NCBI GenBank assembly: GCA_043228905.1
Contig: JBHGNT010000021.1
Span: 8,494,001 to 8,558,000, forward strand
Source: Azolla caroliniana
Lineage: Eukaryota; Plantae; Polypodiophyta
Direction of reading: 5' to 3'
Length of the DNA stretch: 64,000 nt
Within the stretch, counting starts at the first letter, position 1, and the number at the start of each line of letters is the position of its first letter. Positions 18,747-62,699 of this stretch are shown here, one piece after another. The position numbers and the translations under genes are program-made. The notes under the pieces were generated by a model. It made no database searches and was not told the DNA's origin. It saw nothing but the letters and a program-made list of their open reading frames with translations.

Positions 18747-18750
18747 ACTG

Positions 18751-19592: not shown

Positions 19593-21998
19593 GCGTGTAG
19601 CACATTCATTCCATCTATGATTTGAAGGAACTTCAAGGCCAAGATATTTGAAGCTTTCCACACATTCAAGTGGCTCATTGTTGTACATAATGCATGGTTT
19701 ATCTCTTTTTTGGCTCTTCACAAGCATAATCTTTGTTTTAGAGCTATTGACACTTAATTTAGTATGCATGCAAAATTTTTCCAATGCCTTCATAAGCTTT
19801 TGTGCATCTCCTAAAGTATTTGCAAAAAGCACTACGTCATCTGCATATAGCAAAAGCATAATCACAACATTCCCAATGGCAACTTCTTCAACACATTCTT
19901 CCTTTGCAAACTTGGTAACCATTTCTTCCAATTCATCAATGCATAGACCAAATAGTGTTGGTGAGAGTGGGCATCCTTGCTTAACACCAATAGTGATTTT
20001 GAAAAAATCTGAAAGTTTATCTTTCATGCGCACACAACATATAACCTTCTCATAAATTCGGGAAATTGCAAGCATATATTCACTTGGCACCTCAAGTTCT
20101 TCCATTCGCCTCCAAAGATGCTCACGAGGTACCATATCAAAAGCTTTCTTGAAGTCTACAAAGCAACAATATAAACCTTTACCTCTAAGGCGACTTTCCT
20201 CCATTAATACTCGAAGGGTGATAAGGTGATCAATGGTGCTATGGTGTTTCCGAAAGCCAGCTTGCCCATAAGCTCTCTTACCACTTTTTTCAGCCCATAC
20301 ACTTATCTTTGATTCCATTATACATCCAAATAGTTTTGCCATTAATGAGCCAACCATGATGGTTCGATAATTGTTTACATTATTTATATCTCCACCTTTA
20401 TGTAAAGGTTTGATCCAATTTGTAGTCCAATCGTACGGCATACCATGTTGCAATGCATCATTAAACATATCGCTTATCCATATATGTGCTTCCTTTCCCG
20501 TCCATTTGAGCATTTCAGCCTTTATACATTGAAGATCGCTTGCCTTTCGAGAGGCCAATTTCTTAAGTCCTATGCATATATCTTCAATTGTAAAGAAGGA
20601 AGGCATATGTGAAAGAGAACCATAACACATCATCTTTCCGGCAAGAGATAACTCATATAAATTCTTACAATGCATAGATAAGTCGTGAAGAGTTAAGTCA
20701 CCATAACTCTCAACACGTTTTCCCTTTAGATTTTCCCAAAATTTAGCACATGCATGTGCTTTCTCTTGCGTTTGGATAAATTGTTGAGTAACTTCCCATA
20801 TTCTTCTCTTTCTTTGAATAAGCCTTTTATACTCATGCAAATGCTTTTGGTAATTCTCTTTATCCTTAACTACATCCAAAACCATAAGGCACTTTCGAGC
20901 TTCACGACATTCTTTATCAAACCATTTTTTCCTAAGTTTCTTGGTACATTTCCAAGATGTGCGGTTGGTCGAAAAACATTTGTTTGTACATGAGAGAATG
21001 ACTTTCTTGAAAGCTTCCCATTTGCATTCTAGTGTGGCACCATGTTGTATCTTTGTCATTTGTAACATATCCTCAACCATCTTGGAATACATGGGTGCTC
21101 GCTTAAGGTTCATGCTCAAGTGCGGTTGTTTATTATCTTCAATAGCCTTCTCACAATCAAACCTATGCATACATTTGAGATCAATACATAAAGGCCTATG
21201 ATCTGATTCCGGTGTCCATTCACCAAGTGAGAATTTATGTATACGATCCAAAATACCTTCGGAAAGTAGCACATAATCAATCACACTATTTCCGTTGTAT
21301 TTTCTACATGTAAAACCATTAGTGTTGGGCCATAAGGAAATACCATTTGCAATAAGCAATCCGGTACTATTGCACATTTGTAGGAGTAGTTTCCCAAATT
21401 GGTCCGGATCTTTTTCATCGCTAGAAGAGCGGTTATACATTTGCATATCCTCTTGCATCCTTGAGATATGTGGCATGAAAGATTCTTGTGAATCAAGTTG
21501 GAAACTTCTTGTACGAGCATTCATGTCACCAAAGACAATAACTTCCCCTTTGGATTTGAAATAAGCAATATCATCTTCTAGATTGGCAAACGGTTGATCT
21601 TTATCCAAACAAGCATAAAAGTTAGAATCTTGATGAGGAATGTAACATCCAACAACAAAAGTGGGCAAATCATTAGGTGTTTCTATTTTGAGCCATATGT
21701 AGCATTTATTTTCATCATTTTTTATGATTGACACATATTTCTCTATTTCCTTCTTAATCAAACATGCCACCCCTCCTTGTCCTCTTCTTTGTCTTGGATT
21801 TTTCTTCCATATCAAAGAGTGTACATTATAGTTTCCTAAACCTTGAATCCTTTGAGTATCATGCTCCCATGTTTCAACAAGAAGTGTGATATCCGAGTCA
21901 TTGGTGAACTCCTCTATGCCAAATCCCGCATTCCATGGGTATCCATTGCAATTCCAAAAGCATAGTCGTAAAAGGCGTGGGTTAGTCTCATAGATCAC
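19593..21998 (-). CDS. LINE ORF2, 5' part: AP endonuclease plus reverse transcriptase
   Basis: APE motifs WNCNG, VETW, GDMNAR, IDYVL, SDH; RT motifs YRTI, QAGFR, FVDFKKAFD, GVKQGCPLSP, LLYADD, FKYLG. Interrupted by Gypsy at 19592. Confidence 0.92.
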
Positions 21999-22004
21999 GT
22001 GTCC

Positions 22005-22874
22005 CTATTTGCCTACATTTCCATCTTTAGGCACATCCTTAACCTTGTTTTTCAATCTTTCTTCATATGCTTTACGACGAGCATTTTGTTGTGAGATAGT
22101 ACGATCTTCACTCACAAAGCATTGTGTACCTTTGAGGTATACCCAACTATTTTCGAGTATGATCCGCCGCTTTGTATCATCTGTCATTGTGCATACAATA
22201 GGCCTTTCTCCGGAGCGAGTAACACCATGTTTCCCAACTCGGTGTGCCCCATATACATTCACATCTGACATCCCATAATGCATGCTAAAAAATTCACCAA
22301 TGGCCTTTCCAAGGGATGCGGGTGTTTCCATACTCTCTTCTTTAATCCCACGGACGACAATGTTCTTTGATCGTCGTTCGCGCTCTTTCAATTCTCGGAC
22401 ATCTATGCTTTCTATATTCTTCTCTTGATGCATCACATGCATATTAGATGAGTTTGATAACACATCCCCACCACATACATCGGCCCATGACTTCGTTGTA
22501 CATACATTTTTCATCTCACTTACATCCCGCCTCATCGTATCCAATTTTTCTTCTTTTAATGCTTCCTTTAACTCAATCTTGTTAAGGCGCTCATTTGTTT
22601 CAAATGAAGCTCTTTTACATTCTTGAATCTCTTCTTGAAGTTTTGCAACCACTTGTTTAAGACTTTCATTCTCAATGACAACACTTTGGAGCTTAGTATT
22701 CTCTTTCATTAACATCCTAATCTCTTCACCTTGCTTGTTTATGGTTTCTTGAAGAGAAATCAAGTGACTCATAAGCATTTTGTCCATTGCATTAGAATCA
22801 AGATTTGTTGGTGATCTCGGCTCATTATCAATCATACCCCCAAACTTTGCGGCGGTTTTACGAGTATTTGCCAT
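22005..22874 (-). CDS. LINE ORF1 protein, coiled coil plus RRM-like domain (289 aa)
   Basis: Heptad-rich N-terminal half, then RRSKNIVVRGIKE...AHRVGK...RPIVCTM...VSEDRT, a typical LINE ORF1 signature. Confidence 0.85.
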   Translation of the reverse strand: MANTRKTAAKFGGMIDNEPRSPTNLDSNAMDKMLMSHLISLQETINKQGEEIRMLMKENTKLQSVVIENESLKQVVAKLQEEIQECKRASFETNERLNKIELKEALKEEKLDTMRRDVSEMKNVCTTKSWADVCGGDVLSNSSNMHVMHQEKNIESIDVRELKERERRSKNIVVRGIKEESMETPASLGKAIGEFFSMHYGMSDVNVYGAHRVGKHGVTRSGERPIVCTMTDDTKRRIILENSWVYLKGTQCFVSEDRTISQQNARRKAYEERLKNKVKDVPKDGNVGK

Positions 22875-23126
22875 TGTAGGGACAAACCGTACGGGAAAAG
22901 AGAGACAAAGAGGGAAGGAGAGAGAATGTACCTTTCACTCGATTTAGGGCTTCAAAATCTACCTTCCGTTTGAGGAACCGTGGGGCAAAGATGGCTGCGG
23001 ATGAAAATGCTCATAACTTCTCGCCACGGTAACGGAATTCAGTAAATGAACATTCTTTAGAAAGCTCTCTCAAAGAGCTTTCCAACGAACTATAGAACGT
23101 AGAAAACGATGGCCGGAGTGAACTTA

Positions 23127-23420
23127 CAGAGAGAGAGAGAGAGAGAGGAAGAGGTCGTTGCCTTTGTTGTAACCGCCGCTTGTGGCGAAGATAGCAAGCT
23201 CGAGGTTGTTGCCTCGGTGCTTTACTATTGTACATTGTGATATAGTGATAGTTTGTAGTCTGTGGGCTACCATGGTTTTTCCCTAGTTTGGGTTTTTCCA
23301 CGTAAACATCCTGTGTACTCTTCTCTTTACTGTGTCGTGCATCCATTACCCATTTTTCTGTGTTTGATCCTAGACTCGGTTGTGGCCGAGCGTTGTTTTG
23401 GAGAGCGTGTAGTCCTTTCA
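23127..23420 (+). repeat. Copia 5' LTR, right part (GA tract to CTTTCA)
   Basis: Colinear with ~27817-28126; followed by the PBS. Confidence 0.92.
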
Positions 23421-23423
23421 AAG

Positions 23424-23433
23424 TGGTATCAGA
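23424..23433 (+). promoter_or_regulatory. Primer-binding site, tRNA-iMet (TGGTATCAGA)
   Basis: Canonical plant iMet PBS 3 nt after the 5' LTR. Confidence 0.9.
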
Positions 23434-23450
23434 TCGAAACGACACAAAAA

Positions 23451-26400
23451 ATGGACGATTCGTTGGAGGCATGTTCAAGCTCACCGGCTCCAACTATTCA
23501 GTGTGGAAGTCGAAGATGAGGGACATGCTCGTGGTTAAAGATCTTTGGTTGCCGGTTCAGTTTGGGGACAAGAGACCGGACAAAATCGATGCCATGATAT
23601 GGGAGGTGATGCACATGAAGACAACGACGTACATACGGTGCTTCATCGACATGAGTCTATACAACAACTTCAATGAAGAGAGCAAGGCTCATGAGCTCTA
23701 GAGAAGATCAACATTATGTTTCAGAACAAAAATGCCGTTAATCAGGTTTCGGTATTTCGGAAGCTAGTAAGACTCCAGTACCAAGATAGCTCCAGTATGG
23801 AGGAGCACATGAATGCCTTCCAGGGGCAGATCTACCAGGCAACATCATTGGAAGTACCTCTCGCCGATGAGGTACTAGCACTACTCCTGCTCGGTTCCCT
23901 CCTAGATAACTGGGAGACGTTGGTTGTCACTTTGGGCAATGCCGGGCCGGAAGGGAAATGGTTATCCCTAACAAGAGTGAAGTCGAGCTTGCTAGATGAA
24001 GAGGCGCGTCGGAAAGATAAGGATACGAGCTCTGACTCCAAAGCGCTCCTTACCGAATCAGAATGCGGAAGACAAAGGAACCGTAGTCCCCAAAACCGGG
24101 AGAAGTCAGGGACACAATCAAAGTCAAGGGGAAGGCCTACTTGCTTCTATTGCGGCAAGCCAGGATACTTCCAGAAAAACTATCGGCATTTCCGAAAAGA
24201 CAAGGAAACTGATGGTACTGATTCGAAGCGAACATCGGACCAGAACGGTAAAGATCGGAGGGGAATGGACCGGAAGGGAACGACGGCAATCACGGCAAGT
24301 GAAGAAGAGTTGATGCTCATCACTGAGGAGAGTGAGCTAAACCTTGCCAGCGACGAGGTGACCTGGGTGGTCGATTCCGGAGCGTCGTTCCACCTTACCC
24401 CGAACCGGAAATGCTTCTCATCCTACTCAGCCGGTGAACACGGTTGTATCCGAATGGGGAATGAAGGTACATGCCGAATTGTCGGCATAGGAGACGTGGG
24501 GTTGACAACCCCCACTGGATGCAAGCTGCTGCTAAAGGATGTCCGACATGTTCCGGAGGTTCGACTGAACCTGATATCAGTCGGTCCGCTGGATGATGAA
24601 GGCTACACGGGTAACATCCAGAATGGAGTCATGAAGTTCAGCAAAGGGAGCCTGATTGTGGCTCGGGCCTGGAAGGTCAACACGTTGTACATGATGAATG
24701 CCCGGTTATGCCCGGAAGAAGTGAACGTGGCTTCCGACACTGCCGGTGAGCTGTGGCACAAGAGGTTGTGTCACATGAGCGAGAAGGGGATGAAGAGGCT
24801 TGCAAACGACAACCTCATTCTAGTGAAGAACGTGCACTTGGAGAAGTGCACTCATTGTCTGGCCGGTAAACAAAACTGGACCTCCTTCCGACCAAGGCCA
24901 CCGATGAGACGTAATGCACCACTAGAGTTGGTGCATACTAATGTGTGTCAAGTGGACACGAAGTCACATGCAGGATCGCAGTACTTCGTGACGTTCATAG
25001 ATGACCACAACCGGAAGCTGTGGGCCACACTGTTGAAGACGAAGGATCAGGTGCTATCCATCTTCAAAGAGCTCCATGCGAGAGTGGAAAGAGAAACCGG
25101 CCGGAAGCTGAAGGCGGTTCAAGCAGATAATGGAGGTGAATACCGGGGGCAGTTCGAGGAGTACTGCCGCTCGAAGGGAATCCGACTCGAATTTACCGTG
25201 CCGAAGACGCCATAACTAAACGGGTTGGCCGAGAGGATGAACCGGACCATAATGGAGAGGGTCCGGAGTATGCTGGCGCATGCAAAATTACCCAAGAAGT
25301 TTTGGGCTAAAGCACTGTCGACGGCGATATATGTGATAAACAGATCACCCTCAGTACCCTTGGACGGAGACACGCCACAGAGAGTCTGGACCGGTAAGGA
25401 AGTGTCCTACCGGCATCTGAAGGTATTCGGGTGTCTTGCGTACATGCATGTAGCTAAGGACCGGAGAGGAAAGTTAGATCTGAAGACCCGACCATGCATA
25501 TTCCTTGGTTATGGTGACGATGAGTTCAGCTACTGAGTGTGGGACCCGGTTGACAAGAAGGTATTCTGGAGTCGAGATATTATCTTCATGGAGGACAAGA
25601 CGCTCGCCGACTGGGAGTTGGAGAAGAAGATAATGAACTCCAAGTCGACCGGTAAGGATCGATTCTACGATGAGCAGACCCAACCTGCAAGAGACCGGTT
25701 TGCACTCGATGAACCGGCCGGTGACGGTAAGGAGACAAGACAGGCCGAAGAAGAAGAGGAAGCTTAAATCGGAACCCGTCAAGACCCCGAATCGGATTCG
25801 GATGAAGAACAAATAGAGGAGCCAGTTACTAAAGCCCAAATGCGGAGATATCCTCTCAGAGAGAGAAGGCCCCCCTGGAGATTTCTGGATGCAGAGCATG
25901 TCCTGCTAACCGATGAGGGGGAGCTAGAAAGTTTCGAGGAAGCTAAAAGTGACGCCCAAGCTGCAAATGGTTAAGTGCCATGCAGGATGAGATGGATTCC
26001 CTGCATGAGAACCATACGTACGAATTGGTGGAGTTGCCGAAAGGATAGCGGGCACTCCGAAACAAGTGGGTGTACAAGTTGAAACTGGGAGACGCCGGCA
26101 ACCCCCCGAGATACAAAGCCAGGATCGTGGTGAAGGGGTTCCAGCAAAAGAAGGGCGTGGACTTCGACGAGATATTTGCCCCGGTAGTAAAGATGACCTC
26201 CATCCGGACGGTGTTGAGTATAGCGGCAACATGGACCTCGACGTAGAGCAGCTGGACGTGAAGACAACATTCCTTCACGGTGACCTCAAAGAGGAGATCT
26301 ACATGCAACAACCAGAAGGATTCGTGGAGAAAGGGAAGGAGCACCTGGTTTGCTGGTTGAAGAAGAGCCTGTATGGACTGAAGCAAGCTCCCCAACAATG

Positions 26401-27489
26401 GTACCGAAAGTTCGACTCCTTCATGACCGATCAAGGGTACCACAAGACGCAGGCCGATCACTGCGTGTTTGTGAAGAAGTTCGAAGGAGGCAACTTCCTG
26501 ATACTTCTTCTGTACGTGGACGACATGTTGATTGTCGGACGAGACCAAGCCAAAATTCGGATGCTGAAGAAGGCTCTCAACCGAACTTTCTCAATGAAAG
26601 ACTTGGGTTTGGCAAGACAAATGTTGGGGATGTATATCATCCGGGACCGGCCAAAGAAGCAATTGTGGTTGTCACAGGAGAAGTACGTGACAAAGGTGCA
26701 TCAGCGGTTCAACATGTCAGACGCGAAACCGGTCGGATTGACACTTTCGGCAAACTGCAGATTACCGGTAAGCAAAGCCCGAAGACGAAAGCAGAGAAGG
26801 CGGATATAATGAAGGTTCCATATGCCTCTGCCGTCGGGAGCTTAATGTACGCAATGGTGTGTACTCGACCAGATATTGGATACGCAGTCGGAGTGGTGAG
26901 CTGGTTTATGAGCAATCCCGGCAAGGAGCACTGGAACGCGATCAAATGGATACTCCGGTACTTGAAGGGCACTTCGAATATGTGTCTTCGATTCGGCTCC
27001 GGTAAACCCCAGCTTGACAGTTTTACCGATTCGGATATGTCTACTGATGTGGATACCAGCCGGTCTACATCCGGGTATGTAATGACATATGCAGGGGGAG
27101 CTGTTTCGTGGCAGTTGAGGCTGCAGAAGACGGTTGCGTTGTCACCCACGGAGGTGGAGTACATGGCGGCTGTTAAAGCCGGCAAGGAAATATTATGGAT
27201 GAAGGACTTCATCGGTGACCTCGGTATACGACAAGATGAATATCGGCTTTATTGCGACAGTCAAAGTGCCATCCACCTTGCTAAGAACGCAACGTACCAT
27301 TCCAGGACGAAGCATATCCAACATAGGTATCATTGGATTCGGGAGCGAGTAGAAGATCGAGAGTTCGCGCTCATGAAGATCCACACGGCCGAGAACGGGT
27401 CAGATATGTTGACCAAAGTACTGATACCCGACAAGCTGGATGCATGTCGGAAGCGGATCGGACTAGTAAGACATCCCATGCCAGAGTGA
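23451..27489 (+). pseudogene. Copia gag-pol, disrupted
   Basis: Gag (KLTGSNYSVWKSKM), degenerate knuckle CFYCGKPGY, protease WVVDSGAS, GAG-pre-integrase LWHKRLCH, IN core, RT LLYVDDML, RNase H CDSQSAI; several stops and frameshifts across ORFs 23360, 23716, 25225, 26066 and 26350. Confidence 0.93.
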
Positions 27490-27499
27490 AGGGGGGGTT

Positions 27500-27814
27500 T
27501 GTTAGGAAACAGATTCCTCTGGATGGGATAGGAGTACCCGGTGAGAACCGGATGATGAGTACCCGGCAAGAGCCGGATGGTGAAGACTTGGTGAGAACCT
27601 GATGACGAGTGCCCGACAAGAGCCGAATGATGCAGGCCCGGTGAGGAGTGCTCACCGGATGAAGGGACATATTCGTAAATATGTTTCTGAGAGTCCATTG
27701 GGACTATATTTGTAAATAGCCGAAAAGTCATATTAGTATAAATATGACTTAGGGCAAATTTAGAGTGAGAGGTGTGTGATTATCGTTGTTGCGATAATTC
27801 TGTGCGTAACTTTG

Positions 27815-27856
<42 letters not shown>

Positions 27857-28126
27857 GAGGTCGTTGCCTTTGTTGTAACCGCCGCTTGTGGCGAAGATAG
27901 CAAGCTCGAGGTTGTTGCCTCGGTGCTTTACTATTGTACATTGTGATATAGTGATAGTTTGTTGTGTGTGGGCTGCCGTGGTTTTTCCCTAGTTTGGGTT
28001 TTTCCACGTAAACATCCTGTGTACTCTTCTCTTTACTGTGTCGTGCATCAATTACCCGTTTTTCTGTGTTTGATCCTAGACTCGGTTGTGGACGAGCGTT
28101 GTTTTGGAGAGCGTGTAGTCCTTTCA
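27500..28126 (+). repeat. Copia 3' LTR (627 bp) with uninterrupted (GA)n tract; PPT at 27488-27497
   Basis: TGTTAGG...CTTTCA preceded by GAAGGGGGGG. Confidence 0.95.
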
Positions 28127-29570
28127 AGTTTATTACAATATAATAGATTCTTTTATAAAATAAGAATAAATTCTACAATGGGTTTGATATGAATATGAGA
28201 AATAATTTATAAAGGAAGGGGGAAGAGAGGTGGAGGAAAGAAGAGAGTGGAATATAGAAGAAGGTGATTCTTTGTTGATGATGCATCTTGATGTTGTTAA
28301 TCCTTCTTCTTTTGCCTTCCAATTGAGTAGAGCTTCCGCGTTCCATCTCCCTCCCCCCCGTCTTCACTAGAATAGGTTCTTATTTATAGGTTTAGGATTG
28401 TTTGCCTTTTCCCCCCTAAAAAAAAGCTTTTCTATATGAGTCAACTTTTCTTTTCCTCACTATTTCTGTTTTCTAGCCCCAAATTTCCCATGCAAGATAT
28501 TCTTGGAAAGCTCTTTGGGTTAGCTTTCTTATGCATCTTTGTTTTTCTAATTTCGACATCTGAAGAGGAAATTATGAGCTTTTTTCTTTACTGTGCTCCT
28601 CATATCCACACGTGTTTTTTTTTCTCTACTTTTGTCTACTTTTGAAAACCGCCTCTAACTTAATATTCATCATTATTTATTGTAAGGTTCAATCCTTTGA
28701 CCTTTTATTTATAAGGAATTATCTTTGGCAAAATGAAAAAGTATTTTTGCTACCAATAAAGTTGACTTCATAATACTAGTTTATTTAAACTACTATTTTG
28801 CTTCTTTTCGAGGGTGGTTTCAAACTATGTGTTAGAAACATCACGACAACGTGTCAGTTGGTAAGTCTGTTAGTCTCTCTCTCTCTCTCTCTCTTGTCAC
28901 AAAGTTGTCAGTCGGACAATGACAAAAAGTTTCTATTGCACATATTACCTATCTCTCTCTTTCTCTCTTGCTCTCTCTCACTCCACCTTTGATTCTTTGT
29001 TTCCCGTGTTGTTCTTGCTTTTCCCCCTTTGTGCTCGTTGTTCTTGTTGTTTCCCTATGTTCTTTGAACTCTGTATATGTAGAGATTGTTGTTTCCCCTT
29101 TGTGCTCGTTGTTCCTGCTGTTTCCCTACGTTCTCTTAACTCTGTATATGCAGAGATTGCTCTGCAGCCAACATGCATCCTCTGCGTTGTTGTATTGCCT
29201 ATTGTGAACTCCTCTGTAGTGATTGAGCAACGAGATTTTTTTTCTCCTCTGCACGACCTCGTCAACGACCTCTTGCATATAGGTGATTTCCTCGGCTTGG
29301 TGTGCTCCCAAGGTGAAGAAATCAACGCGGTGTGGTACCACTGCCTTGACCTTGGCTCGCATCATTCCATCTGCAACTTGTACGACCTCCAGGTATTCAC
29401 TGTGCCGCATTTACGGTATGTTTTGATTTTTCATATTCTCTATTTTGCATGTCCAACTGTTTTGATTTTTTGTATTCTCTATGTGTCAGGAATAGTACTA
29501 AAGCAAAGAGAGAATTAGTACTAAAGAAGAGAAGTACTATTAGTACTAAGAGGACGGGACTGCGTAAGAT

Positions 29571-29613
<43 letters not shown>

Positions 29614-29861
29614 CGAGGATGAGAGAGAGAGATGATGATGATAACAACTAATATATTATGTGAAGGATAATTACAAAATGGCGAAGAGGCTTAAGACTGG
29701 CGTTGAACCAATTTGGTGCAACATAATGCCTAGTGCCTTCTTTTATAGTGTTCTCAGGAGTAATCCTAAAGCTTCTAGAATGTTCCAGAGAAATCTGGAA
29801 TATACATTAATTTCCTATAATAAAACTTAAATGAAAATAATATGCTACGTATTACAATAGA

Positions 29862-29916
29862 TGGTATAATGGTCAAGAGCTCGAGCCATATAACATAAGG
29901 TCATGGGTTCGAGTCT
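29862..29916 (+). promoter_or_regulatory. tRNA-like A-box/B-box module at the U3 tip of the Tcn1 LTR (also ~42061-42115, and inverted at ~59455-59510)
   Basis: TGGTATAATGG at 29862 and GGTTCGAGTC at 29906; T8 to G53 spacing of 45 nt. Confidence 0.65.
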
Positions 29917-29998
29917 TGCCATATCATGACACTATCCCCCCCTTAAGATGACGAGTGGAACGAGTCGACGCTGATTGAGGACCGGCTTTGTCGGGATA

Positions 29999-31471
29999 CT
30001 ATTGGTGAAATTCAGCAAGAAGAGCATTGACGACATGCTCGACGGGCTCCCAAGTACGTTCGCTCGGAGTATAGCCAAGCCAATCAACCAAATAATAAAG
30101 TTTGTTGCGAACAAATTTGGAGTCGAGGATGGCAACAACTTCATACACCGGGCCGACGTCTAACTCAAGTGGGGGCGGCGGTGGTGTAACTCGATCAAGA
30201 ATAGGGTTTGCGTTATAAGGTTCAAGAAGAGAACTATGGAAGACCGGATGTATCCGAAGATGTGGAGGAAGATCAAGGAGGAACGTGACATCATTAATCT
30301 TACTGGTAATACGGAAAGGACCGAATCGTCGATAATCCAACTTGTCGCACGGTCGAGTAGTCTTGATGTGACAACGTAAAAGCCATACTCGATGACGATC
30401 CGCATAAGTCTTCTGTGTCTGTTGAGCATGACGAAGATGAGTAGAGAGATCCATCTGGATCTTGCGTAGTCTCTCCAAATGATCCTCGGCACGAGGATTG
30501 GTAGGTAGCTCTGGGGTGTCGATCACCGACCAGCGAGGATGAGAACCGGTATAAGCGTAGAATGGGGAGACTCGAGTCGAGGAGTGAACAACATTATTAT
30601 ACGCAAACTCTGCAAAGTGGAGGAAATGGGCCCAATCGTCCTGTTGATAACTTAGGAAACACCGAAGATATTGCTCCAGCGTTTGGTTTGTTCGTTCCGC
30701 CTTCCCATCGGTCTGAGGATGGTAGCCGGCGGAGAGGTTGCAAGAGACCTTGAGCATCTTGAAGAGATGCTGCCAAAATTTGGAGACGAATTGCGGTCCT
30801 CAGTCACTAATGATACTATCTGGGAGGCCATGATGCTGAAATACCTCACGGATGACAAGGGCGGTGGTGTCCTCGCTAGTGATGGCCTTAATACATGGCA
30901 CAAAATGTGGCATCTTCGTATATCGATCGACGACGGTTAAGATAGCATCGAACCCCTTTGAGACCGGTAGATTTGTGATAAAGTCAAGACAAATAGACTG
31001 CCACGGCTTACTTGGAATCGGTAAGGGTTCCAACCAGCCGTATGGATGGTGTCGTGGCATCTTTGCTCGGCAACAAGCATCACATGTCCGAACGTAGTCG
31101 TCGACAAAACGTCGCATATGGGGCCACCAAAAGGATCGTTGAACTAGATCCAATGTCTTAGTGCTACCGAAATGTCCCGCCATATGGGTGTCGTGACAAC
31201 TTTGGACGATTTGAGGGCGACAAGAGCAATCGGGGACATATACAAGCTTTTTAAAGAATAACAAACCATCATGATATTCGAATTGTCGGTAGTCCATACC
31301 TGGTTGTTGAGACTGGGAACAGGATGCCCGAGAGCTATCAATGTGCGCCAGAATGTCTTGAGCAAATTTGTCCGTCTTCAAGTTTGCACGTATGGTGTCA
31401 GTAATCTGGGAATCTATTGGGGTGTGAAAAATCTGCATTGTGTGCAATCGTGTTGGTCCCAAGATTACTTG
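29999..31471 (-). pseudogene. Tcn1 integrase plus chromodomain
   Basis: CHD..AGHFG..CDAC, ICLDFI, IISD, ERTNQTLEQYLR, GPF, IHPVFH, YLVDWLGY...TWEP. Confidence 0.9.
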
Positions 31472-31910
31472 CTTTTTGTTAACTCTTAGGGCCGGACAAT
31501 GGCCTAACACAGGGTGTCTACGGAAGACACTTCACCAAAGGGTGTTACGGCAACAAGATTAGACTCAACGATTAATCCGACTTAATTAGGTTACTTAGCA
31601 TGATCGTCTTTAATAATCACACGCGTAAGATATAACAATGAATGCAGAACGGCAATTAACACAGAGAGATAACAACACTAAGCTTTATTAATTAACCGCT
31701 ATTCATTACATTGTATCCAGGCCTTTAAATAGGTTTCCGGTCTGTATTACAGAACGGTGCCATCCGCACTTGTTCGGGATCGGTTCGGATCCGGAACGGC
31801 ATACCGATTCTGGTCCGTCCGTCCACACTCGTAGCTTACTTACAACCATTCCTACTAATTAAATAACTCCCCGTTTCACACTCTGGACTCCTTTGCCGGC
31901 CGGTAACACA

Positions 31911-31927
31911 TGGCATGCTCGTGGGAC
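31911..31927 (+). promoter_or_regulatory. Inverted PBS-like site TGGCATGCTCGTGGGAC at the PPT position of element E
   Basis: 2 nt from the 3' LTR; no purine tract on the sense strand; homologous site at 43999-44013. Confidence 0.7.
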
Positions 31928-31962
31928 AGTACCTTGTACGTCGAATCCACAACCGACCCTTG

Positions 31963-34713
31963 CTATTCTTCGTCCAAAATATCCAGAATGCTTCGTTCGA
32001 GAGTCTCCAATGGTTCATCTGGAATTGGTTGTTGTTGCTGCTGCTCTGTTGATGTCTGCTGCGACGGGTCCGTTGGTGGCTGCTGCGACTGCTTCTCCGT
32101 TTGTTGCTCTGACACCGGCGTCTCCGTCGTAGTGGTCTCCGGTTGACTGGTTCCGGGCTGGCCCTCGGCCGGCGACGGTTCCTCATCACTAAGGTTAACC
32201 GTTGCCGCTTCCCGAACTCGGGACCGCTCGTAGCTTTCAAACTGGATTTGAGCGTCCAACCAATCATCGTCTAGCTGAGCTACGAGTTGTCGGACCTGCG
32301 CCAGCTGTTCATCCGCCAAGACTTGGAAGTCGTCGGCCAGCTCGTCCCGTATGGCGGTGAAGTCCTCGGAAGTCAACGTATAACAATCATCTCCTTCCTT
32401 CCGCCGGTTTGCCACGTCTGCCCGTAGCAATTGGAGGTCTGCCGCGTTTTGTGCCCACTTTGTCCACCATCTTACGGAGCTTTCGTCAATCAAGTGTTTT
32501 GTTTGATTCAACCATGCCCGAAGAATGGACTGAATCCGGCCCGTTCCCAATTGCGATTTGGTTTCCACCGCTTGTCGTTCCTCCTTCATTTGCTTGATGA
32601 TTTTGACGTTGTCTTCCGCCTGCTCCCTGTAATGCGTCAATTGCCTTTGATATGTGCTTTGTAATTTCTGCAATACCGTTGACGCTCTCTCCTTTTCTTC
32701 CTGCTGCTGCCTCTGGAGCTCCATCCGGACCTTCTCCACCTCGTCCAAGCGTCTTGTATTTTCTGCACGTTCGTCGGCGATCGCCGTCGCGGCCCGATCA
32801 ACTTCCTGCTGGAGCTCGACCATCCGTTCCTTATGCTCCGTTTCCAGCCGTTTGTAGTCCCGGTGCAGGTGCTCAAAATCATCTGTCTTTTGCTTGAGCC
32901 GTGCGTTGATTTGTCGACGGGCCTGGTCCTCGCGGTCCTTCTGCTGGTGGAGCTCTTCCTTTAGCCGTTCAATTTCCGTTTCCGCCGTCTTCCGCAGCTT
33001 GTCCTTTTCCTGCAGCACTTTGTCTTTTTCCTCCCTTAGCCGGTCGTACGCTTGATGGCCTTTCCGGAGGCTCTCCTCTGCCCGGCGGAGGTTCTTAGTA
33101 GTATTCTTTAATTCGGCTTCGACTGCTGTCTTCAATTCCCGTTCACGGCTCCTTAGCGCTTCTTGTGCGGCAAGTTCATCTCTCAATTCCGCAAGCTCCT
33201 GGGCTTGCGCCGCATCTCTTGCCGGAACGGTTTCCGTTGCCGGGGTCTTATTGGTATGTACAGGTCGATCCGTTTCTTTATTCTGTACACTTATCGGAGT
33301 CACCGGTGATTGGATCTGTGTTGCCATTAAGGCCATTTTGGCCATCTCTGTCGTGACCTGATCCAAGTCTTTTTCAAGGCACCGGATTCTGGACCGGGCC
33401 GTCTCTAGTTGTTCGGTTATGACGAGCAACCGTTCGCTTTGCGCTCTTTCTTCTGCCTCAATATACCCCACTGCTCCGACTATCTGTTCGCCTATCCACT
33501 GGAGCCACAGGCTACCGGTGCATTGTTGTGCTTGCACGGAGGTTTGACAGATGGGCTCACTTGTAGATGGGTGGTCCCATCTGGTTGCGCCGAGTTGCAA
33601 TTCCGTTTTTGCCCGTGGACCACCCTGCTGTCCTGGTTCCCCTTGCGCTTCTTCTTGGTTGGCCGAGGGAGGCTGCATTGACCTTTCCGGCTCTGGCGGG
33701 ATGGGACTTGGCGGTGTTGCCGGTGGTGCCGGGGCTTCTGATTCCGGTGCCATGCGCACCGGTTCTGGTTCCTCCCTTGGCGTGGGAGTCTTAGTATGGG
33801 GAGCCGGTGTTCCCTCCGTCTGAGGGTCCGAACGTTTCCCGGCTGCCTCAACGGTCCTTGCCGACGACCGTCGCTGGAGGTGCTCCGTAGGCTCCTCCTC
33901 TATTTCCTCTTCCTGAGTCCCGGCATTGAGTTTTGCCACCAAGGGGTCCGCTTCTCTATTCACCGGTCGGCGGAGTGTAACCTTTACGGGCCGTGCCGGT
34001 GGTTCCTCCTGCGCATCCGTTGGCCGCTTCCGGATGCCGCTCTCCTTTCCCTCCTGTTCTGCGTCCGCCGCCTTCCCCTTAGTGGCCTCAGAGACCAACA
34101 ACTGTTGTCGTTTGGAAGCCGTCTTTGGGGTGCCGTCCGCCACTCTTCCTCGCTTCTTGGGCTGGACGGGCTGGACGGGTGGCACAAGCAAGGTGAGCCA
34201 CTGCGTTACGGCGTGCCATATCCTCCGTCCGTCTCGGCTTTCTTTGCCGTCTTTGCCTCTGACGATCTCAATCGCCGCAGACAACCCGTCTGCGATCAAT
34301 ACCGGCCAATCCACCTTGATCCCTTCATAGGTGGCGATGATCATCCCTGCCCGGTTCTGCGGCATGACTGGGGGTCTAGGGTACACATGGCCGTATTCGT
34401 GGAGCACACGAGCAATCTCGCGGAACAACATATCTCCGCCGCCCTGTGTCCGGTAGCCCTTGCTGGCTAGGGAGTACTCACCAAAATACCTGATGAGTTG
34501 CTCCGGGGTCGGATTGTCAATCGTGAGTATGCCTCCCTCTGGGAGGCCTGTTAACGCTCGAATCGCCTCCGCCGTTATGACCTCTGTGTCGATTTCTTTG
34601 ATCACCTTGTCGGCTTCTTTGTGTGGTGGTACTTCCGTCATCATCAAGAAGCCCTCGAGCCCATGTTGCTTTAGCCATGTCTTGGCGGCTTCCGACAGCG
34701 TTTGCGGGTCCAT
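31963..34713 (-). CDS. Element E extra ORF3, 916 aa: globular N-terminal domain, Pro/Glu-rich linker, long coiled coil; function unknown
   Basis: Uninterrupted ATG-initiated ORF ending ~55 nt before the 3' LTR; N-terminal domain homologous to ORF 46104-46562 of element F. Confidence 0.85.
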   Translation of the reverse strand: MDPQTLSEAAKTWLKQHGLEGFLMMTEVPPHKEADKVIKEIDTEVITAEAIRALTGLPEGGILTIDNPTPEQLIRYFGEYSLASKGYRTQGGGDMLFREIARVLHEYGHVYPRPPVMPQNRAGMIIATYEGIKVDWPVLIADGLSAAIEIVRGKDGKESRDGRRIWHAVTQWLTLLVPPVQPVQPKKRGRVADGTPKTASKRQQLLVSEATKGKAADAEQEGKESGIRKRPTDAQEEPPARPVKVTLRRPVNREADPLVAKLNAGTQEEEIEEEPTEHLQRRSSARTVEAAGKRSDPQTEGTPAPHTKTPTPREEPEPVRMAPESEAPAPPATPPSPIPPEPERSMQPPSANQEEAQGEPGQQGGPRAKTELQLGATRWDHPSTSEPICQTSVQAQQCTGSLWLQWIGEQIVGAVGYIEAEERAQSERLLVITEQLETARSRIRCLEKDLDQVTTEMAKMALMATQIQSPVTPISVQNKETDRPVHTNKTPATETVPARDAAQAQELAELRDELAAQEALRSRERELKTAVEAELKNTTKNLRRAEESLRKGHQAYDRLREEKDKVLQEKDKLRKTAETEIERLKEELHQQKDREDQARRQINARLKQKTDDFEHLHRDYKRLETEHKERMVELQQEVDRAATAIADERAENTRRLDEVEKVRMELQRQQQEEKERASTVLQKLQSTYQRQLTHYREQAEDNVKIIKQMKEERQAVETKSQLGTGRIQSILRAWLNQTKHLIDESSVRWWTKWAQNAADLQLLRADVANRRKEGDDCYTLTSEDFTAIRDELADDFQVLADEQLAQVRQLVAQLDDDWLDAQIQFESYERSRVREAATVNLSDEEPSPAEGQPGTSQPETTTTETPVSEQQTEKQSQQPPTDPSQQTSTEQQQQQPIPDEPLETLERSILDILDEE

Positions 34714-35193
34714 GTCCGTGTCGAGGTCGGATTGCGGTGGCGAGGTTGGATGGTGATGAGAGTGAGATTGAGAGAGAGAGAGTTCAGAAGGCGGGGGTTC
34801 TCTGTGCGTAGGTTCTCATCTGATGTTCTTGCAGCGCCTTGCTGCTTCTGTGCTCCTGGGTTAGCGAAAGTAAAGGGTCTCCACGCGCAGTGCTTTTTCT
34901 CTGTGCATTCTGGCGCCTTTTTCGAGTGTGTGCACGTTGTGTACTAAAATAGCATTATGTCCTGTGGTGGCGCTTTAAATGCCCACTACGTACCTTTTCG
35001 CTCCTCGCTCTTTCATCCATTCATTCCTCGCTTTTGCATGATTACTTCGTTTTTTTTTTCATGATTACTAGTGTGACGTTACTTGTCCGTTGGTCCTCTC
35101 AGACCCTTACTGGCCTCATTCTCCCCAGTTACCGGCTTGCCGTCTCTGCTGTCTTGGTGGTTGCCGTTTCCCTCATCGGTGTCGGTCCTTTGC

Positions 35194-38000
35194 TCAAATG
35201 GGTTCCAACGCTTCCTGCGCTTGCCGTAACCCCCGGATTGCGTCTTTATCCGGTTCTGCTTCAGCCTCTTCTGGTTGCGGTAAGTATGGTGCTACTGCTT
35301 CGGCAATGTCAATTTCGAAGAGGGGTATGATCTTCGGGTTTTCCTGCAAGTACTGAGCTTCTTCTTTGTCAGTTAACCCTTCTAGCATGTTGACGCGCTC
35401 TGCATACAACGGTGTACATTCCTTGCCAGTGCTCGTCCTTGTCTGTGTTGGTACCCTTACCTTGGCTTTTCCTCGCCGGAAGGTAATTATATTTTTCCTC
35501 CAATTCTGTTTGATATGTGCCGTTTTCAACCACGGCCGCCCCAGCAATAGCGGGTATGCACCTTGTGCCTATAATTGTAGCACTACTGCCGAGATGTGAA
35601 ATGTATGACCGCCCACGGTGACTTCTAATTTCCGTATTAATCCTGTCGGCCGCACTGAGCTTGTATCGGTCATCCGCAACCAGAACGGACACGGCTCCCA
35701 CTCGTGGATTCCTAGGGCATCACATGTTCGGAGGCTTATTACATTCACCCCAAAGCCTCCGTTTATAACTGTGCCGGGGAGTTCTTTCCCTTTTACAATG
35801 GCAGTGATTACCGGACTGTTGGTGTCCACCACCGTTGGTCCCTCCTCCGGATTCAAGAAGAGTACCGGTGCTGGTGATGATTCTCCTGCCGTCATGGCCG
35901 TCTTCAGTCCTTCCGTGAATCTTGGCACGAGTTTCAGCAGTCTTCCTAGTGGCAACGTAGTCTGGCATTCTTGCAACGCCTGCCATGTCTCGTTCTCGGA
36001 GTGACTGCCGCTGGCAAGCCCTACGGTGTTCTCCTTTTGCCATTGTAAGTCTGTGACATTCTGCTCGTTTGCTTTCTTCACCCATTCCGTCGCTTGTTTC
36101 CGGATGGTCTCCTGCGTCTCCCATTCCTTGGCCATGCCCTTCGACCTTGTGGTCACCTGCTGCAGATCTGCCACCTCAGGGACTACCATATTTACCGCCG
36201 GTCGTTTTTCATAGCTCTTCACCAGGCATTGATTACTATAATGGCCTTCTTGTCAGCAGTAGTAGCAGTAGGCTTTCCGGGTATTGCTGGATTCGGCATT
36301 GTCTGTTGTACCCGAGGCAGGTCCTGTGGTACACGCGGGGTTTTGGGCCGGTTGGCTGCTTGAAGCTCCTTGTTCCGGATCTTGTGGGTAGCCGCCTTTT
36401 TTGAAATGCCGTTTTTTTTATAGCTCTTCTTATTGCGGTACTCTTGACGGGGTTGCCCGTTATATTTGCCCTATTCCTCCCATTGCTAACGATACCCGGG
36501 GGAGTGCTCTCGGTCGTAATGTTCGTATCGTCTATTGTAATCCCGGTACTGATCATGCCGGTCATAGTTATCCCGCCGATCACCGTACCGGACATCATTC
36601 TCCCGTCGATCGCCATACCGGACATCCTGTGCCGGTCGGTCGCGGTCCATTCGCCACCAGCGTTCCTCTTCTTCATCCTGGCTGCTGCGTGGGTCAATTT
36701 GTCGGACGGGCGGTGCTTGATGGTTCAATAGATTATACTTGCACCTATCCGTCGTATGGCCCTTGGATTGATAGATTACACATTGCGTCCTCATAGTGCA
36801 TTCTAGAGCCGAGTGTCCGGAATTTAAGCAGGTTGTGCACTGTATTGCTTGCCGAAACTGGAGGTCTTCATCGGACGGTAACGCCCGTTGGAGTGCTCCC
36901 AGTGTGAGCTAGGAGCTTGTCTTTTCTATCTCTCTCACCAGGTCAATGACCTGGTCGATGGTACTTGTGTGGAAGTCAATTACCGTGCAAACCGTGCGTA
37001 GGGGTTCCCGGAGCGCGTTTAGGAATATAGTCCGTAATTCCTCCTCCGGGGGTGCGCAGGCAAGCTGACTATGCATCCGTTGAAACCGGATGACAAACTG
37101 GGGAATGCTCTCCCCTGCTTCCTGCCGGATGGTATAAAATAAGCCTACCATTACGGTCTGGTCCACCTCCTTTTGGAAAAAATGCAAGAATTTAGGTCTT
37201 AAATCTGCAAAGGTGTTGATGGTAGACGGGTCCTGCGTCCGGCGCCATCTTGCTGCCGGTCCCTCCAATGTGACACCAAATTTCGCTATCTTAGAGCGTT
37301 CCTCTTCATCCGGGGTCAATCGCTGGGACACATGGTTGGCTTCCCATGTCTGTTCAAAGGCGTGCACATGAGCTTCCGCGTCTGGATCATCTCTATACAT
37401 GGAGTACTGGAACGGCATGTCATCGTCCGGTATCGGTGCGCGGGCTGGTAGTGTTGGTGCTCGTTCCAGGATTTTCTCCAGCGTCGGTGGTCTTTCCCGA
37501 TTTGTTTCCGGCGTTAGTGGTTTTTCCTCTTCTTTTGGTGACGGAGGCCTCTCCTCTTCGACTTCCGGTGTCAGAGGTCGCTCTTCCTCTGCTGGTTCCG
37601 GGGGTTCCAACGTTAGCACTTCCGGTTCCGGTGTCGGTAAGGTATCCGATCCTTCGTTCTCCGGTCCGCCCGGGGTTTCGTTGCTGTGACGGTAGTTCGT
37701 GTGCACGCTGTATTCCCCTTCGGAGTCCGATTCATACACTGGAAAGGCTTCTGCTTCGCCTTCTCCGTTTGCCAACACCTGGAGAAGGGATTCGGTTTCC
37801 CGGAGGCTGCTGCTGTCGTCCGGGTGCGATGTTTGTTGTAACCAGAGGGAGTCCTCCGCTACTCTCCGGATTACGTTGGAAAACGAGCGATCCGCTCTAA
37901 TTTCCTGGGCCGCTTGCTGGAAAGCCTCACGTCTCCTTTGCCTTTCGGCAAGGCGTCGAGTTCGATCTGTAACCAGGTCGTGCATTGATCTAGTCATCCA
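35194..38000 (-). pseudogene. Element E gag-protease, several stops
   Basis: Retrotrans_gag core (AEAHVHAFE..LEGPAARW..RQEAGESI), knuckles C..C...GH....C, protease VINGGFGVNVIS..LLGRPWL with the catalytic D read as N. Confidence 0.85.
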
Positions 38001-38033
38001 TTCGTGCCGTCGTTCGTTGCAAAAACAGGAATC

Positions 38034-38043
38034 GTGGTCGCCA
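38034..38043 (-). promoter_or_regulatory. Element E PBS, TGGCGACCAC (tRNA-Arg-like), 7 nt after the 5' LTR
   Basis: TTTTTGGCG context typical of Athila/Tat; 10-nt match to plant tRNA-Arg(UCG) 3' end as recalled. Confidence 0.6.
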
Positions 38044-38487
38044 AAAACTGTGTTAACTCTTAGGGCCGAACAATGGCCTAACACAGGGTGTCTACGGAAG
38101 ACACTTTACCAAAGGGTGTTACGGCAACAAGATTAGACTCAACGATTAATCCGACTTAATTAGGTTACTTAGCATGATCGTCTTTAATAATCACACGCGT
38201 AAGATATAACAATGAATGCAGAACGGCAATTAACACAGAGAGATAACAACACTAAGCTTTATTAATTAACCGCTATTCATTACATTGTATCCGGGCCTTT
38301 AAATAGGTTTCCGGTCTGTATTATAGAACAGTGCCATCCGCACCTGTTCGGGATCGGTTCGGATCCGGAACAGCATACCGATTCCGATCCGTCCGTCCAC
38401 ACTCGTAGCTTACTTACAACCATTTCTACTAATTAAATAACCCCCCGTTTCACACTCTGGACTCCTTTGCCGGCCGGTAACACTTTT

Positions 38488-41400
38488 GATTATCGAACAC
38501 TGGATCACCAGGATGAGGTGCAAGATAGGAACGCCGTGATAGTGCATTTGTCTTTCCTTGTTGCTTCCCTGGTCGATATGCGATTTTGAAATCAAAACGT
38601 GTGAGGAATTGAGCCCACCTAGCTTGCCGTCAATTTAGCACACGAGCGTTATGGAAATAAGAAAGATTCTTGTGATCACTGAAGACGATGACCTGATGTG
38701 GAGAGCCCTCCAAAAAATGCCACCATTGTACAAATGAATCCACGATGGCTAATAACTCCTTGTCATGTATTTCGTAGTTGATTTCCGCAACATCGAATTT
38801 ATGCAAATGGAAAGCCACAGGATGTAACTCTTCTTTATGTCCTTGTTGAGAAAGGATGCTACCGAGGGCGAAATCTAATGCGTCGGCCTACATGATGAAT
38901 GGTTCGCTTGTATCCACATGAGCTTGAATAGGTGCTGATGTAAAGGCTTTCTTAAGATGCCGAAAAGCCATGTCTGCTTCATTGGACCAAAGAAATGCTT
39001 GTCCCTTCCTTGTAAGTTGTGTGAGAGGTAAAATAATCTTCGAGTAATCCTGTATAAACTTGCGGTAGAAATTAGCGAAACCTAGAAAACATTGTACATC
39101 TCGTACTGACCGTGGAATTTGCCACTCTAGCACAGTTTGGACTTTAGCTGGATCCATGGAGATGCCCTTTGAGGAGATAACGTAGCCTAGAAACTCCACT
39201 TGCTTGCAGTCAAAACTACATTTTTCTAGCTTGGCATAAAGACCATTCTCATGGAGTCGATTTAGTACTAATAGTACATGAGAATCGTGTTGTTCCTGGG
39301 TGTTCAAATAAATCAATAGATCATCCAGATAGATGATCAAACAGATATCCAAGAGGTCTCTGAATATATCATTTGGCATGTGTTGGAAGACTACGGGTGC
39401 ATTGGTTAGACCGAACGGCATAACAGTATATTCGAAATGCCCATACCATGTGCGGAAGGCGGTCTTCCATTCATCTCCCGTCGGATCCGAACGAGGTTAT
39501 ACGCTCCTCATAGATTGATTTTTGTAAAAAACTTGGCACCATTAACTCGCTCTAAAAGACTTGATATAAGAGGAAGTGCATACCTATTCCAGATGGTGAC
39601 CTTAGTTAAGCCGCGGTAATCAACGACGAGACAAACTGAGCCATCTTTCTTCTTGACAAAGAAGATGGGTGCTCTGATTGGAGATTTCGAATGACGAATA
39701 AACCTGCTTGCCAAGTTCTCCTCTATGTAGGCTCGAAGGACTTCTAACTCGGTGGGTGACAAGTTGTAGATTGGTCCCCATGGTGGCTCTGCTCCTGGTT
39801 GTAAATCGATGGGACAATCGTAGGGACGATTATGAGGAAGAGTACCGTCTTTTACCTTGTCAAATACGTCGGCGTAAGGATGATATTTCGCCGGAAGTTG
39901 CACTAAGGATTCCTCCTTAATATTGCTGGAAGGATGTACTGATATGGCAAATAGGAACATTGCCTCCTTGTGTCCTTCTTCACGTAGTTGACGTAGTGAA
40001 ATGGTCGAAACTCGGTGAGTAGATTCTTGGGGTTGTCGATATCAAACTTCTCTTGTTCGCTAATCTTTGTTTGGATTATGTAGTTCAAACCAAGGTAATC
40101 CCAGGACAATGAGATGCTTTGGACTACTAATAATATTAAATGATACTACACACACAAAACTACCTAGGACAACTTGAATGGGTTCTGACTCTTCTACAAT
40201 ATTCCCGGAAGCAATGGGACGACTATCAATGACTACTACAGATGTGGGGCAAGGAAGTTTTCTTAAGGATATCTGAGAAGCTTGGGCCAAAATTTCGATC
40301 CATGAAACAAGAATTGGCTCCGGAATCTAAATGTGCTAGGACTTGTACTAAGGGAGTACTTTTAGTAGTAACCATGACTTGGGCTAGGAACATATTTCTA
40401 ACTTGCTTGGAGGGAATGGAACCACTAATGGGTTGTACAGATCTAGGGCCGTCCAACCAAACGGCTCCTATTTTGGCTGGACTCAATCGTTTAACTCTTC
40501 ATCTAATTGACTAAGGATTTCAAATTTGTTTGAGATACTTGGGCTATTAGTACTATTAATACTATCGAACACTCTATTAGTACTATTGATACTATTAGAC
40601 ACTCCTAAGGGAAGAATTGACTCTGTTTTAGTACAGGCTACGATTTTATTTACTTGTCTTCTTGGCCTATGGGGACAATTGATTGCGATATGCCCTGGTC
40701 CACCGCAATAAAGACATAATTGATTTGCATGACGTTGTTGCTTTTCTTATTCCGATAACGGGCCACGTCGACGCATGGTCTCAATCTCCATCGGTGTCGG
40801 AGTATTTGCTTGAGGTACGTCACGTGTGAACGCTTTAGCCGTGATTGAGGCGTATGTGGGCTCTGGCCTAGAGCGTGGTATTTGTAATTGACATTTGGAA
40901 CGCCGTTCGAAAAGGTGGTTGTCACATCGGACTGCTCGATTGATTGCCTCCGTAAGAGATTTTGGTTCTTCGGGGAAGGTTAAAAGTAAATCTTTTACAT
41001 CGTTTCATAGGCCGTAGCAAAACTGCTCCATTAGTACCTGATCATCCTAGGGGATATTGGAGGCGAGTAGACGGAAATCCGCCGCGTAGGCAGAGGCTGG
41101 ATGATTGCCTTGACGCAATTGTTGGATCTTGTTGATCGCTGTCCTAATGCTGTTAGTGACTCCAAAGCAGGCTTTAAACTCACTAATAAAATCTTCAAAG
41201 TTATTAAGCAAGGGCGATTATTTTTCTAGAAGCGGAGCGAAGCATGCTAAGGCTGAGCCGCTAAGCAACGTGCCTATTAGGCCGACTCAGGATGCATCAG
41301 TGGGGTATCGGGAAGGATGCATTTGGATGACTAATCGTATCTGATTAAGGAGTCCCCTGAATTGCGATCGCGTTCCATCAAATTTCACAGGAAGTCCAAT

Positions 41401-41640
41401 CTTCGGCTCTTTATGAAATCCTTGGGGACTTGATCCTTGTTGTTGCAATGCTGCTTCGAGTCGTTGTACCTGTAACGCTAACTCCCCATGTTGTTGCTGC
41501 GTTTGTTGTTTTTCTAGAGCGATTTGTTGTAGATCCCCTATCAGCCATTGGTTTTCTTGTTCCAAGGCAACAAATTTTTCTTTTAGGCATTGTAGCTCGG
41601 AGAAAACGGATTGATATTCTTGGGTGCTAATAGTAGCCAT
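38488..41640 (-). pseudogene. Tcn1 gag-PR-RT-RNase H, frameshifted
   Basis: EPKIGLPVKFDG (gag), LDSGANSCFMD (PR), MPFGLTNAP and YLDDLLI (RT), NYEIHDKELLAIV and SDHKNL (RH). Confidence 0.9.
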
Positions 41641-41693
41641 AGTAGGGAAAAGGGTAGGAAGATGAGGGAGAATGACAAGTAGGCTTGAGGAGA

Positions 41694-41705
41694 AAATTGG
41701 TTCAA
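41694..41705 (-). promoter_or_regulatory. Self-priming PBS (TTGAACCAATTT) complementary to the predicted RNA 5' end in the LTR (41902-41913)
   Basis: No TGG tRNA PBS; exact 12-nt complement lies about 33 nt downstream of TATAAAA on the minus strand. Confidence 0.75.
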
Positions 41706-42313
41706 ACTGTCAGGAATAGTACTAAAGAAGAGATGTACTATTAGTACTAAGAGGACGGGACTGCGTAAGATTCTCAAGAGAGAGAGAGAGAGAGAAGAGG
41801 AGAGAGAGATAGCGAGGATGAGAGAGAGAGAGAGATGATGATAACAACTAATATATTATGTGAAGGATAAGTACAAATGGCTAAGAGGCTTAAGATTGGT
41901 GTTGAACCAATTTGGTTCAACATAATGCCTAGTGCCTTCTTTTATAGTGTTCTCAGGAGTAATCCTAAAGCTTCTAGAATGTTCCAGAGAAATCTGGAAT
42001 ATACATTAATTTCCTATAATAAAACTTAAATGAAAATAATATGCTACGTATTACAATAGATGGTATAATGGTCAAGAGATCGAGTCATATAACATAAGGT
42101 CATGGGTTCGAGTCTTGCCATATCATGACACTATGTTCCATGTACAATTGTTTTGATTTTGTGTTGGATGAGATTTTGTCCTCTATCCAAGAAGAGGCTT
42201 GTACATGCAAACAAGATTGAGTTGGCTATGATTATTTGCTGGTTGTTGATGGTATTTTGATGAGTTTTCTTCTCTGATTAATTGGGAGTCTTGTATACGC
42301 ATATTCTTTCAAC

Positions 42314-62690: not shown

Positions 62691-62699
62691 TAAATACAG

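Follow-up and report, generated by a model that had tools for sequence, protein, structure and literature searches.

A two-part inverted tRNA-Arg(UCU) site occupies the place of the polypurine tract in a plant Ty3/gypsy family and is a candidate site for plus-strand priming by a second host tRNA

The 64,000-nt stretch of Azolla caroliniana DNA analysed here (the window) holds, at positions 31477-38482 on the minus strand, an LTR element that we call element E. It belongs to a high-copy group and is an internally deleted copy of a Ty3/gypsy family of about 9.9 kb, from which a deletion of about 2.85 kb has taken RT, RNase H and most of the integrase. Its two LTRs, of 432 nt each, differ from one another at 11 positions, and the insertion is flanked by a target-site duplication (TSD) of 5 bp. 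The coordinates of its parts are given in Table 1. Element E sits inside a chromovirus-like element (29516-42134; integrase, SH3, chromodomain and RT), where it interrupts the integrase region. Elsewhere in the window are two gypsy elements (12266-19592 and 49311-56374) with 4-bp NCGN TSDs, a common PBS and G-rich ends resembling a polypurine tract (PPT), which served as PPT controls; a LINE-like endonuclease-RT ORF (19518-22934); a copia-type element (23128-28127); and degenerate tandem repeat arrays (60100-62750 and 9640-10960). A truncated relative of family E, at about 43700-46650, retains a remnant of the extra ORF, an LTR and an inverted site. No tRNA genes were found inside the 64-kb window.

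Table 1. Positions, in the window, of the parts of element E and of the inverted site in its truncated relative
Feature	Position	Strand	Remark
Target-site duplication, left copy, 5 bp	31472-31476	.	identical to 38483-38487
3' LTR, 432 nt, TG...CA	31477-31908	-	U3 end at 31908
2-nt spacer, U3 end to inverted site	31909-31910	+	same spacer in tRNA-U3 junctions of a related family
Inverted PBS, block 1	31911-31927	+	complement of tRNA-Arg(UCU) nt 59-76 minus one base; two C>T here
13-nt insert with 4-bp hairpin	31928-31940	+	compensatory changes between families
Inverted PBS, block 2	31941-31952	+	pairs with tRNA-Arg(UCU) nt 47-58 at 11 of 12 positions
Extra forward ORF 3' of pol	31963-34815	-	950 aa, stop to stop
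Integrase C-terminal remnant	35082-35204	-	at the ~2.85-kb deletion junction
gag and protease region	35203-38018	-	broken by stops; gag = PF03732
5' PBS	38031-38043	-	13-nt perfect complement of the host tRNA-Arg(UCG) 3' end
T-rich 7-nt spacer, U5 end to 5' PBS	38044-38050	-	
5' LTR, 432 nt	38051-38482	-	
Target-site duplication, right copy	38483-38487	.	
Two-part inverted tRNA site of the truncated related-family member	43999-44040	+	other hairpin stem

The minus orientation assigned to element E in the original prediction, which was made from the sequence alone, is confirmed: gag (PF03732), the protease region, the 950-aa ORF, TATTTAAA and AATAAA all read on that strand, and the last two occur in both LTRs on the minus strand only. 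A reversed orientation, in which the inverted site would be the true 5' PBS and the genes would be antisense, is excluded by the genes, the TATA and poly(A) motifs and the 13-nt PBS, all of them minus. The 950-aa extra ORF has no Pfam match; a weak Atlas lead (0.86) points to Transposase_32/ATHILA ORF-1 clusters.

On the plus strand, the end of the 3' LTR (31908) is followed by a 2-nt spacer (31909-31910), in agreement with the gap first noted there, and then by TGGCATGCTCGTGGGAC at 31911-31927. The absence of a PPT before the 3' LTR also held, the longest purine run within 60 nt being 5 on either strand; four other LTR elements of the window have G-rich ends at the PPT position. The inverted site itself, first placed at 31909-31930, proved to be real but longer, running to about 31952. 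A search of the 523-Mb genome returned 1,445 exact matches to the 13-nt core of the site and 0 to a reversed control, and the site is therefore not a chance occurrence. Viral contigs gave 1 match to the inverted-site search.

Among 30 copies picked by the junction of inverted site and 3' LTR, the exact 17-mer was present in 23, while the window copy departs from the commonest form by two C>T changes. Within the 25 nt adjoining the 3' LTR, the longest purine run was 3 nt in 29 of these copies and 5 nt in the other. We also assembled an unbiased set of 20 copies chosen by the 5' junction only. The 3' LTR lay within the fetched 9.9 kb in 10 of them; all 10 had the inverted site and none had a PPT. 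LTR starts with an upstream purine run yielded 30 matches (overlapping duplicates included), and the family's internal region was upstream in none of the 10 inspected. Family copies with a normal PPT, which the original prediction had named as evidence against itself, were thus found neither by the purine-run search nor in the unbiased, 5'-picked set.

Host genes for tRNA-Arg(UCU) and tRNA-Arg(UCG) were found by pattern searches and ARAGORN; an Rfam tRNA search of the genome, with 63 candidates scored, was left out of the tRNA results. Alignment of host tRNAs to both ends of the element, the check proposed at the outset, assigned tRNA-Arg(UCG) to the 5' end and tRNA-Arg(UCU) to the 3' end. The site earlier described as PBS-like, which a 7-nt gap separates from the 5' LTR, is a perfect 13-nt (not 10-nt) complement of tRNA-Arg(UCG) plus CCA; it is kept in 30 copies, 21 of which are identical over 24 nt. 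At the 3' end, the inverted site matches 17 of the last 18 nt of tRNA-Arg(UCU), as 11 perfect nt, one unpaired tRNA base and 6 nt, so that the anticipated host tRNA match, one nucleotide short, is present. The whole site is in two parts: beyond the 17 nt lie an insert of 13 nt, which holds a 4-bp hairpin, and a second stretch of about 12 nt matching tRNA nt 47-58. Cofolding at this site, with RNA parameters as a proxy, gave -36.4 kcal/mol for tRNA-Arg(UCU) versus -21.4 kcal/mol for tRNA-Arg(UCG), and the predicted structure is a three-way junction in which tRNA-Arg(UCU) forms about 29 pairs with the site.

The site was compared across 149 occurrences, 83 from the host genome and 66 from metagenome contigs, GC-rich metagenome matches having been filtered out as chance. 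Grouping by flanking sequence gave 52 clusters, of which one (three metagenome sites without an LTR end) was left out of the alignment, leaving 51 flank-defined families. The metagenome contigs show a median identity of 77% to the loci in hand, with a maximum of 94% and 46 of 120 loci aligning; median and maximum point to another plant as the probable source of the contigs. In the 51 family representatives the hairpin is 98.5% paired and has two-sided changes at three of its four pairs. When nine pairs were tested jointly, 37 cells had changed on both sides, a count of a kind that relatedness inflates and that none of 500 shuffles reached. The second block has a mean of 8.2 matches out of 10, compared with 3.9 in flanking controls (52 clusters). 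The site also contains a helix resembling a T-stem, 83.9% paired and without two-sided changes, one of its sides being fixed by the search pattern. This pattern fixed the first 15 nt of the site, and the between-family conservation of those positions is therefore partly circular. Conservation of the motif beyond a single family, on which the original prediction had staked its case, is borne out in the 51 flank-defined families drawn from genome and metagenome contigs.

Six copies of family E were retrieved complete or almost so. Five of them measure about 9.5-10 kb and encode gag-PR-RT-RH-INT and the extra ORF; the remaining one, like element E, carries a deletion. The full-size copies (loci L061-L065) carry gag-PR-RT-RH-INT between two LTRs, and element E has TG...CA LTRs, a TSD and a tRNA PBS after the 5' LTR, as do Ty3/gypsy elements; it departs from their general rule of a PPT before the 3' LTR. 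The catalytic D-E-D-D of RNase H, whose state in autonomous members had been singled out for checking, is intact in 25 of 27 complete domains. Pfam scans found no additional RNase H in ten ORFs (from L061, L062, L063 and L065), with about 110 aa between the RNase H match and the integrase zinc-finger match, and no chromodomain in family-E ORFs. In an RT tree of 46 rows, a named Athila reference not being among them, the family-E-like RTs of the host genome form their own clade (support 100/98; 15-16 rows, with two database proteins besides P0002), apart from the chromovirus-like and Phygy-like RTs of the window. Among named proteins, the closest to them are unclassified ones from ferns and liverworts, with 49-60% identity over the RT core. 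The family-E RT is 33-35% identical to the group that holds the window's chromovirus-like RT, from which it stands on a separate branch, and 22-26% identical to the window's elements with NCGN TSDs. By domain order, the element E family is Ty3/gypsy, and it is non-Tat, non-chromovirus and non-Phygy; its layout is Athila-like, but with Arg primers.

These assignments can be set beside the lineages described in the available text of PMC6317226. Athila, portrayed there as a non-chromovirus OTA lineage, shares with family E the lack of a chromodomain and of an additional RNase H, a 5-bp TSD, a length of about 10 kb and an extra ORF after pol, a likeness in layout. The dominant PBS types listed for it are Asp, Asn and Ala, in contrast to Arg(UCG) or Arg(UCU) in the families studied here, and that text makes no mention of a second tRNA site in Athila. 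The same source gives Phygy a 4-bp NCGN TSD, a tRNA-Trp PBS and no extra ORF, whereas element E has a 5-bp TSD, an Arg PBS and the extra ORF; the window elements at 12266-19592 and 49311-56374 fit the Phygy description in their NCGN TSDs. In the Tat lineages Ogre, Retand and TatIII, a tRNA-Arg 5' primer is reported there in 89%, 30% and 64%, respectively. Tat elements carry this Arg site in the ordinary 5' position and have an additional archaeal-type RNase H, a domain not found in the scanned ORFs of family E. The complementarity of the site to tRNA-Arg(UCU) that was proposed at the outset holds; the element is not of Tat type.

Copies of tRNA ends fossilised in the genome indicate which tRNA was reverse-transcribed and where. 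A tRNA tail with CCA in DNA is the product of reverse transcription of a mature tRNA. The 18-nt Arg(UCG) tail has 97 genome matches, 94 of them at U5 ends, three unplaced with U5-like spacers and none at U3, a distribution that supports minus-strand priming by tRNA-Arg(UCG). Of the first 30 such tails, 27 end at 18-19 nt, which we take to fit an RT stop at methylated A58. The mature Arg(UCU) tail has 37 genome matches: 11 at U5, seven at U3 (four events) and 19 that similarity did not assign to an LTR end, 16 of which have U5-like T-rich spacers. All seven U3-joined tails are in register, have the spacer of their own family and show the tRNA version of the sequence, including the base absent from the element's site.

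The first event (C2) comprises three tandem copies of one join, in which 57 nt of tRNA run through the 2-nt spacer into U3; one of the copies lies at the 5' LTR (L072 region) of a full-size element that shares about 77% identity with family E. The second (L123) has 56 nt of tRNA and its family's 4-nt spacer outside the 5' LTR. The tRNA thus stands at the outer end of the 5' LTR in both the L072 region and L123, and the 5' PBS of the elements concerned is UCG. The third event (C16) consists of two identical U5-to-U3 junctions in one insertion, each with a U5 extension, a tRNA segment of exactly 18 nt directed into U3, and the spacer typical of the family. The fourth (C3) is a tRNA/element mosaic at the U3 side of a chimeric insertion. 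L079 is a fifth case, with 64 nt including mismatches, its U3 end judged by LTR polarity; it too, like all U3-end cases, holds the base that the element's site lacks. Junctions C2, C3 and L079 lie in recombinant contexts. These tRNA-U3 junctions were found in relatives of family E (about 77% nucleotide identity and more distant) and none in family E itself. There, a search for LTR-LTR junctions gave six matches, two of them real junctions: one has a UCG tail from the U5 side and the other (L148) an ambiguous 4-nt remnant.

Several further loci carry unusual tRNA-derived or repeat sequences. At L158-L159 (G000:C3, about 8087100-8094720), a single insertion with a TSD has the interior of a family-E relative inverted with respect to LTRs of another family, both joins being at tRNA-Arg(UCU) sequences. 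The element at L113 (G000:C1:14810628) has, instead of its 5' PBS, a full-length reverse copy (76 nt) of mature tRNA-Arg(UCU). Tails of tRNA-Arg(UCG) are joined head-to-head in fold-back structures at L087 and G000:C8:19460356-19460389. In L124, L125, L135 and L151, a U5 end and an 18-nt tRNA copy are followed by the antisense 3' region of an element; these are apparently strong-stop DNAs mis-paired at the inverted site. Telomere-like TTTAGGG repeats follow the tRNA tail at L289, AACCCT repeats lie near the LTR U5 end of a small non-coding relative at L295, L298 and L305, and L067 is a degenerate cluster of tRNA-like repeats in which ARAGORN calls Leu, Lys and Ala.

On these sequence comparisons, we consider it likely that, in the PPT-free clade of element E with its two-part Arg(UCU) site, tRNA-Arg(UCU) primes the plus strand while the tRNA at the ordinary PBS primes the minus strand. 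Nearly as firmly, we hold that a whole plant Ty3/gypsy clade has probably dropped the PPT, intact host tRNAs starting both strands, the second of them on DNA, through a two-block site with a hairpin at 58/59. The cycle would begin with tRNA-Arg(UCG) binding the 13-nt 5' PBS, where the match is observed, and priming the minus strand. After strand transfer, as in the standard cycle, minus-strand synthesis would extend over U3, the spacer and the inverted site, with the RNA cleared by RNase H. tRNA-Arg(UCU) is predicted to anneal to the exposed DNA over about 29 bp in two blocks, with the extruded hairpin sitting between tRNA nt 58 and 59. RT would then extend the CCA end of the tRNA through the spacer into U3-R-U5. 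RNase H would normally remove the tRNA, and integrase would trim the 2-nt spacer; where removal failed, the tRNA would be copied, giving tRNA-U3 junctions such as those observed.

Plus-strand priming by tRNA-Arg(UCU) would account for the missing PPT, the fixed short spacer and the tRNA-U3 junctions, as well as for the UCU match kept in families whose 5' PBS is UCG. The one-base deletion and the inserted hairpin could persist as fixed features because the site would be inherited through RNA and not recopied from the tRNA. The original prediction had left two primers side by side, a second host tRNA and the tRNA-like RNA of the element itself. We favour the host tRNA, since it is the tRNA sequence that is found in the primer-like remnants at U3 ends.

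If instead the element primed itself, RNase H would cut its RNA after CCA, and the remnant would act as a non-purine substitute for the PPT. In its favour, the tRNA-like stretch of the sense RNA finishes with CCA, 2 nt short of U3, and can form a T-arm-like stem that encloses the hairpin; the 4-nt remnant at the family-E junction L148 is compatible with either primer. However, every long remnant at a U3 end is in the host tRNA version, and a search for element-version remnants of 17 nt at outer ends, which detects cuts of exactly that length, found none, all five matches being ordinary internal sites. The T-stem-like helix, with no two-sided change, also speaks against self-priming, a point weakened by its search-fixed side. 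We therefore regard self-priming as unlikely.

Binding of a tRNA for another purpose, such as packaging, RT positioning or pausing, with the junctions as template-switch by-products and another nearby RNA as the primer, appears less probable again. Several junctions are recombinant, and the four inverted joins (L124, L125, L135 and L151) show that the site attracts mispairing. At L152, the partner of the 18-nt tail is an internal gag-protease position that shows hardly any complementarity, so tRNA-tail joins do not always need the inverted site. A template switch from element RNA onto an annealed, unextended tRNA would give similar junctions, and the junctions thus do not prove priming. Against this reading, the end that pairs with CCA keeps a constant short spacing from U3, as expected of a primer end, no other conserved primer candidate was seen, and complete elements hold the tRNA outside their 5' LTR. 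Least probable is a first-strand PBS on antisense RNA, which would allow either strand of the element to be copied, each tRNA priming on RNA of one sense: PBS geometry at both ends with a PPT on neither strand would suit it and the same tRNA-U3 junctions would be expected, but genes, TATA and poly(A) motifs all lie on one strand, and a single RNA of either sense would still require one tRNA to prime on DNA.

Plus-strand priming by tRNA-Arg(UCU) on DNA would set the family apart from the systems known to us from the literature. In retroviruses and LTR retrotransposons, the plus-strand primer is the PPT, according to the available text of PMC5371799. Yeast Ty3, as described there, shares with the family the gag-PR-RT-RH-INT order, TG...CA LTRs, a 5-bp TSD, a 5' tRNA PBS and an intact RNase H. 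The bipartite PBS of Ty3 serves one tRNA, on RNA, for the minus strand (PMC5371799), whereas element E has its second site on the other strand, in place of the PPT and with a match to another tRNA. The portions of PMC6317226 at hand list three primer types, all for the minus strand. Self-priming in Tf1/Sushi, Tcn1 and TAR (PMC6317226, same portions) indicates that LTR elements can change their priming route; there the minus-strand tRNA primer is replaced, and in element E the plus-strand primer. Alternative plus-strand priming is not mentioned in the accessible parts of PMC13524379 and PMC4139406. In line with the original claim that a dual-PBS element was undescribed, a literature search whose scope excluded most subscription journals and Repbase-type entries found no description of a tRNA site replacing the PPT.

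Plus-strand priming from a PPT is treated as a rule common to LTR retrotransposons and retroviruses; what is available of PMC5371799 gives it for retroviruses and for Ty3. Annotation tools that require a PPT, or that orient elements by their best PBS, can miss or invert elements of the kind described here. If the proposed priming is correct, RT is able to start from a tRNA paired with DNA at one exact position, and the PPT specificity of RNase H would be dispensable. The family would then offer a natural system for asking what the PPT is needed for.
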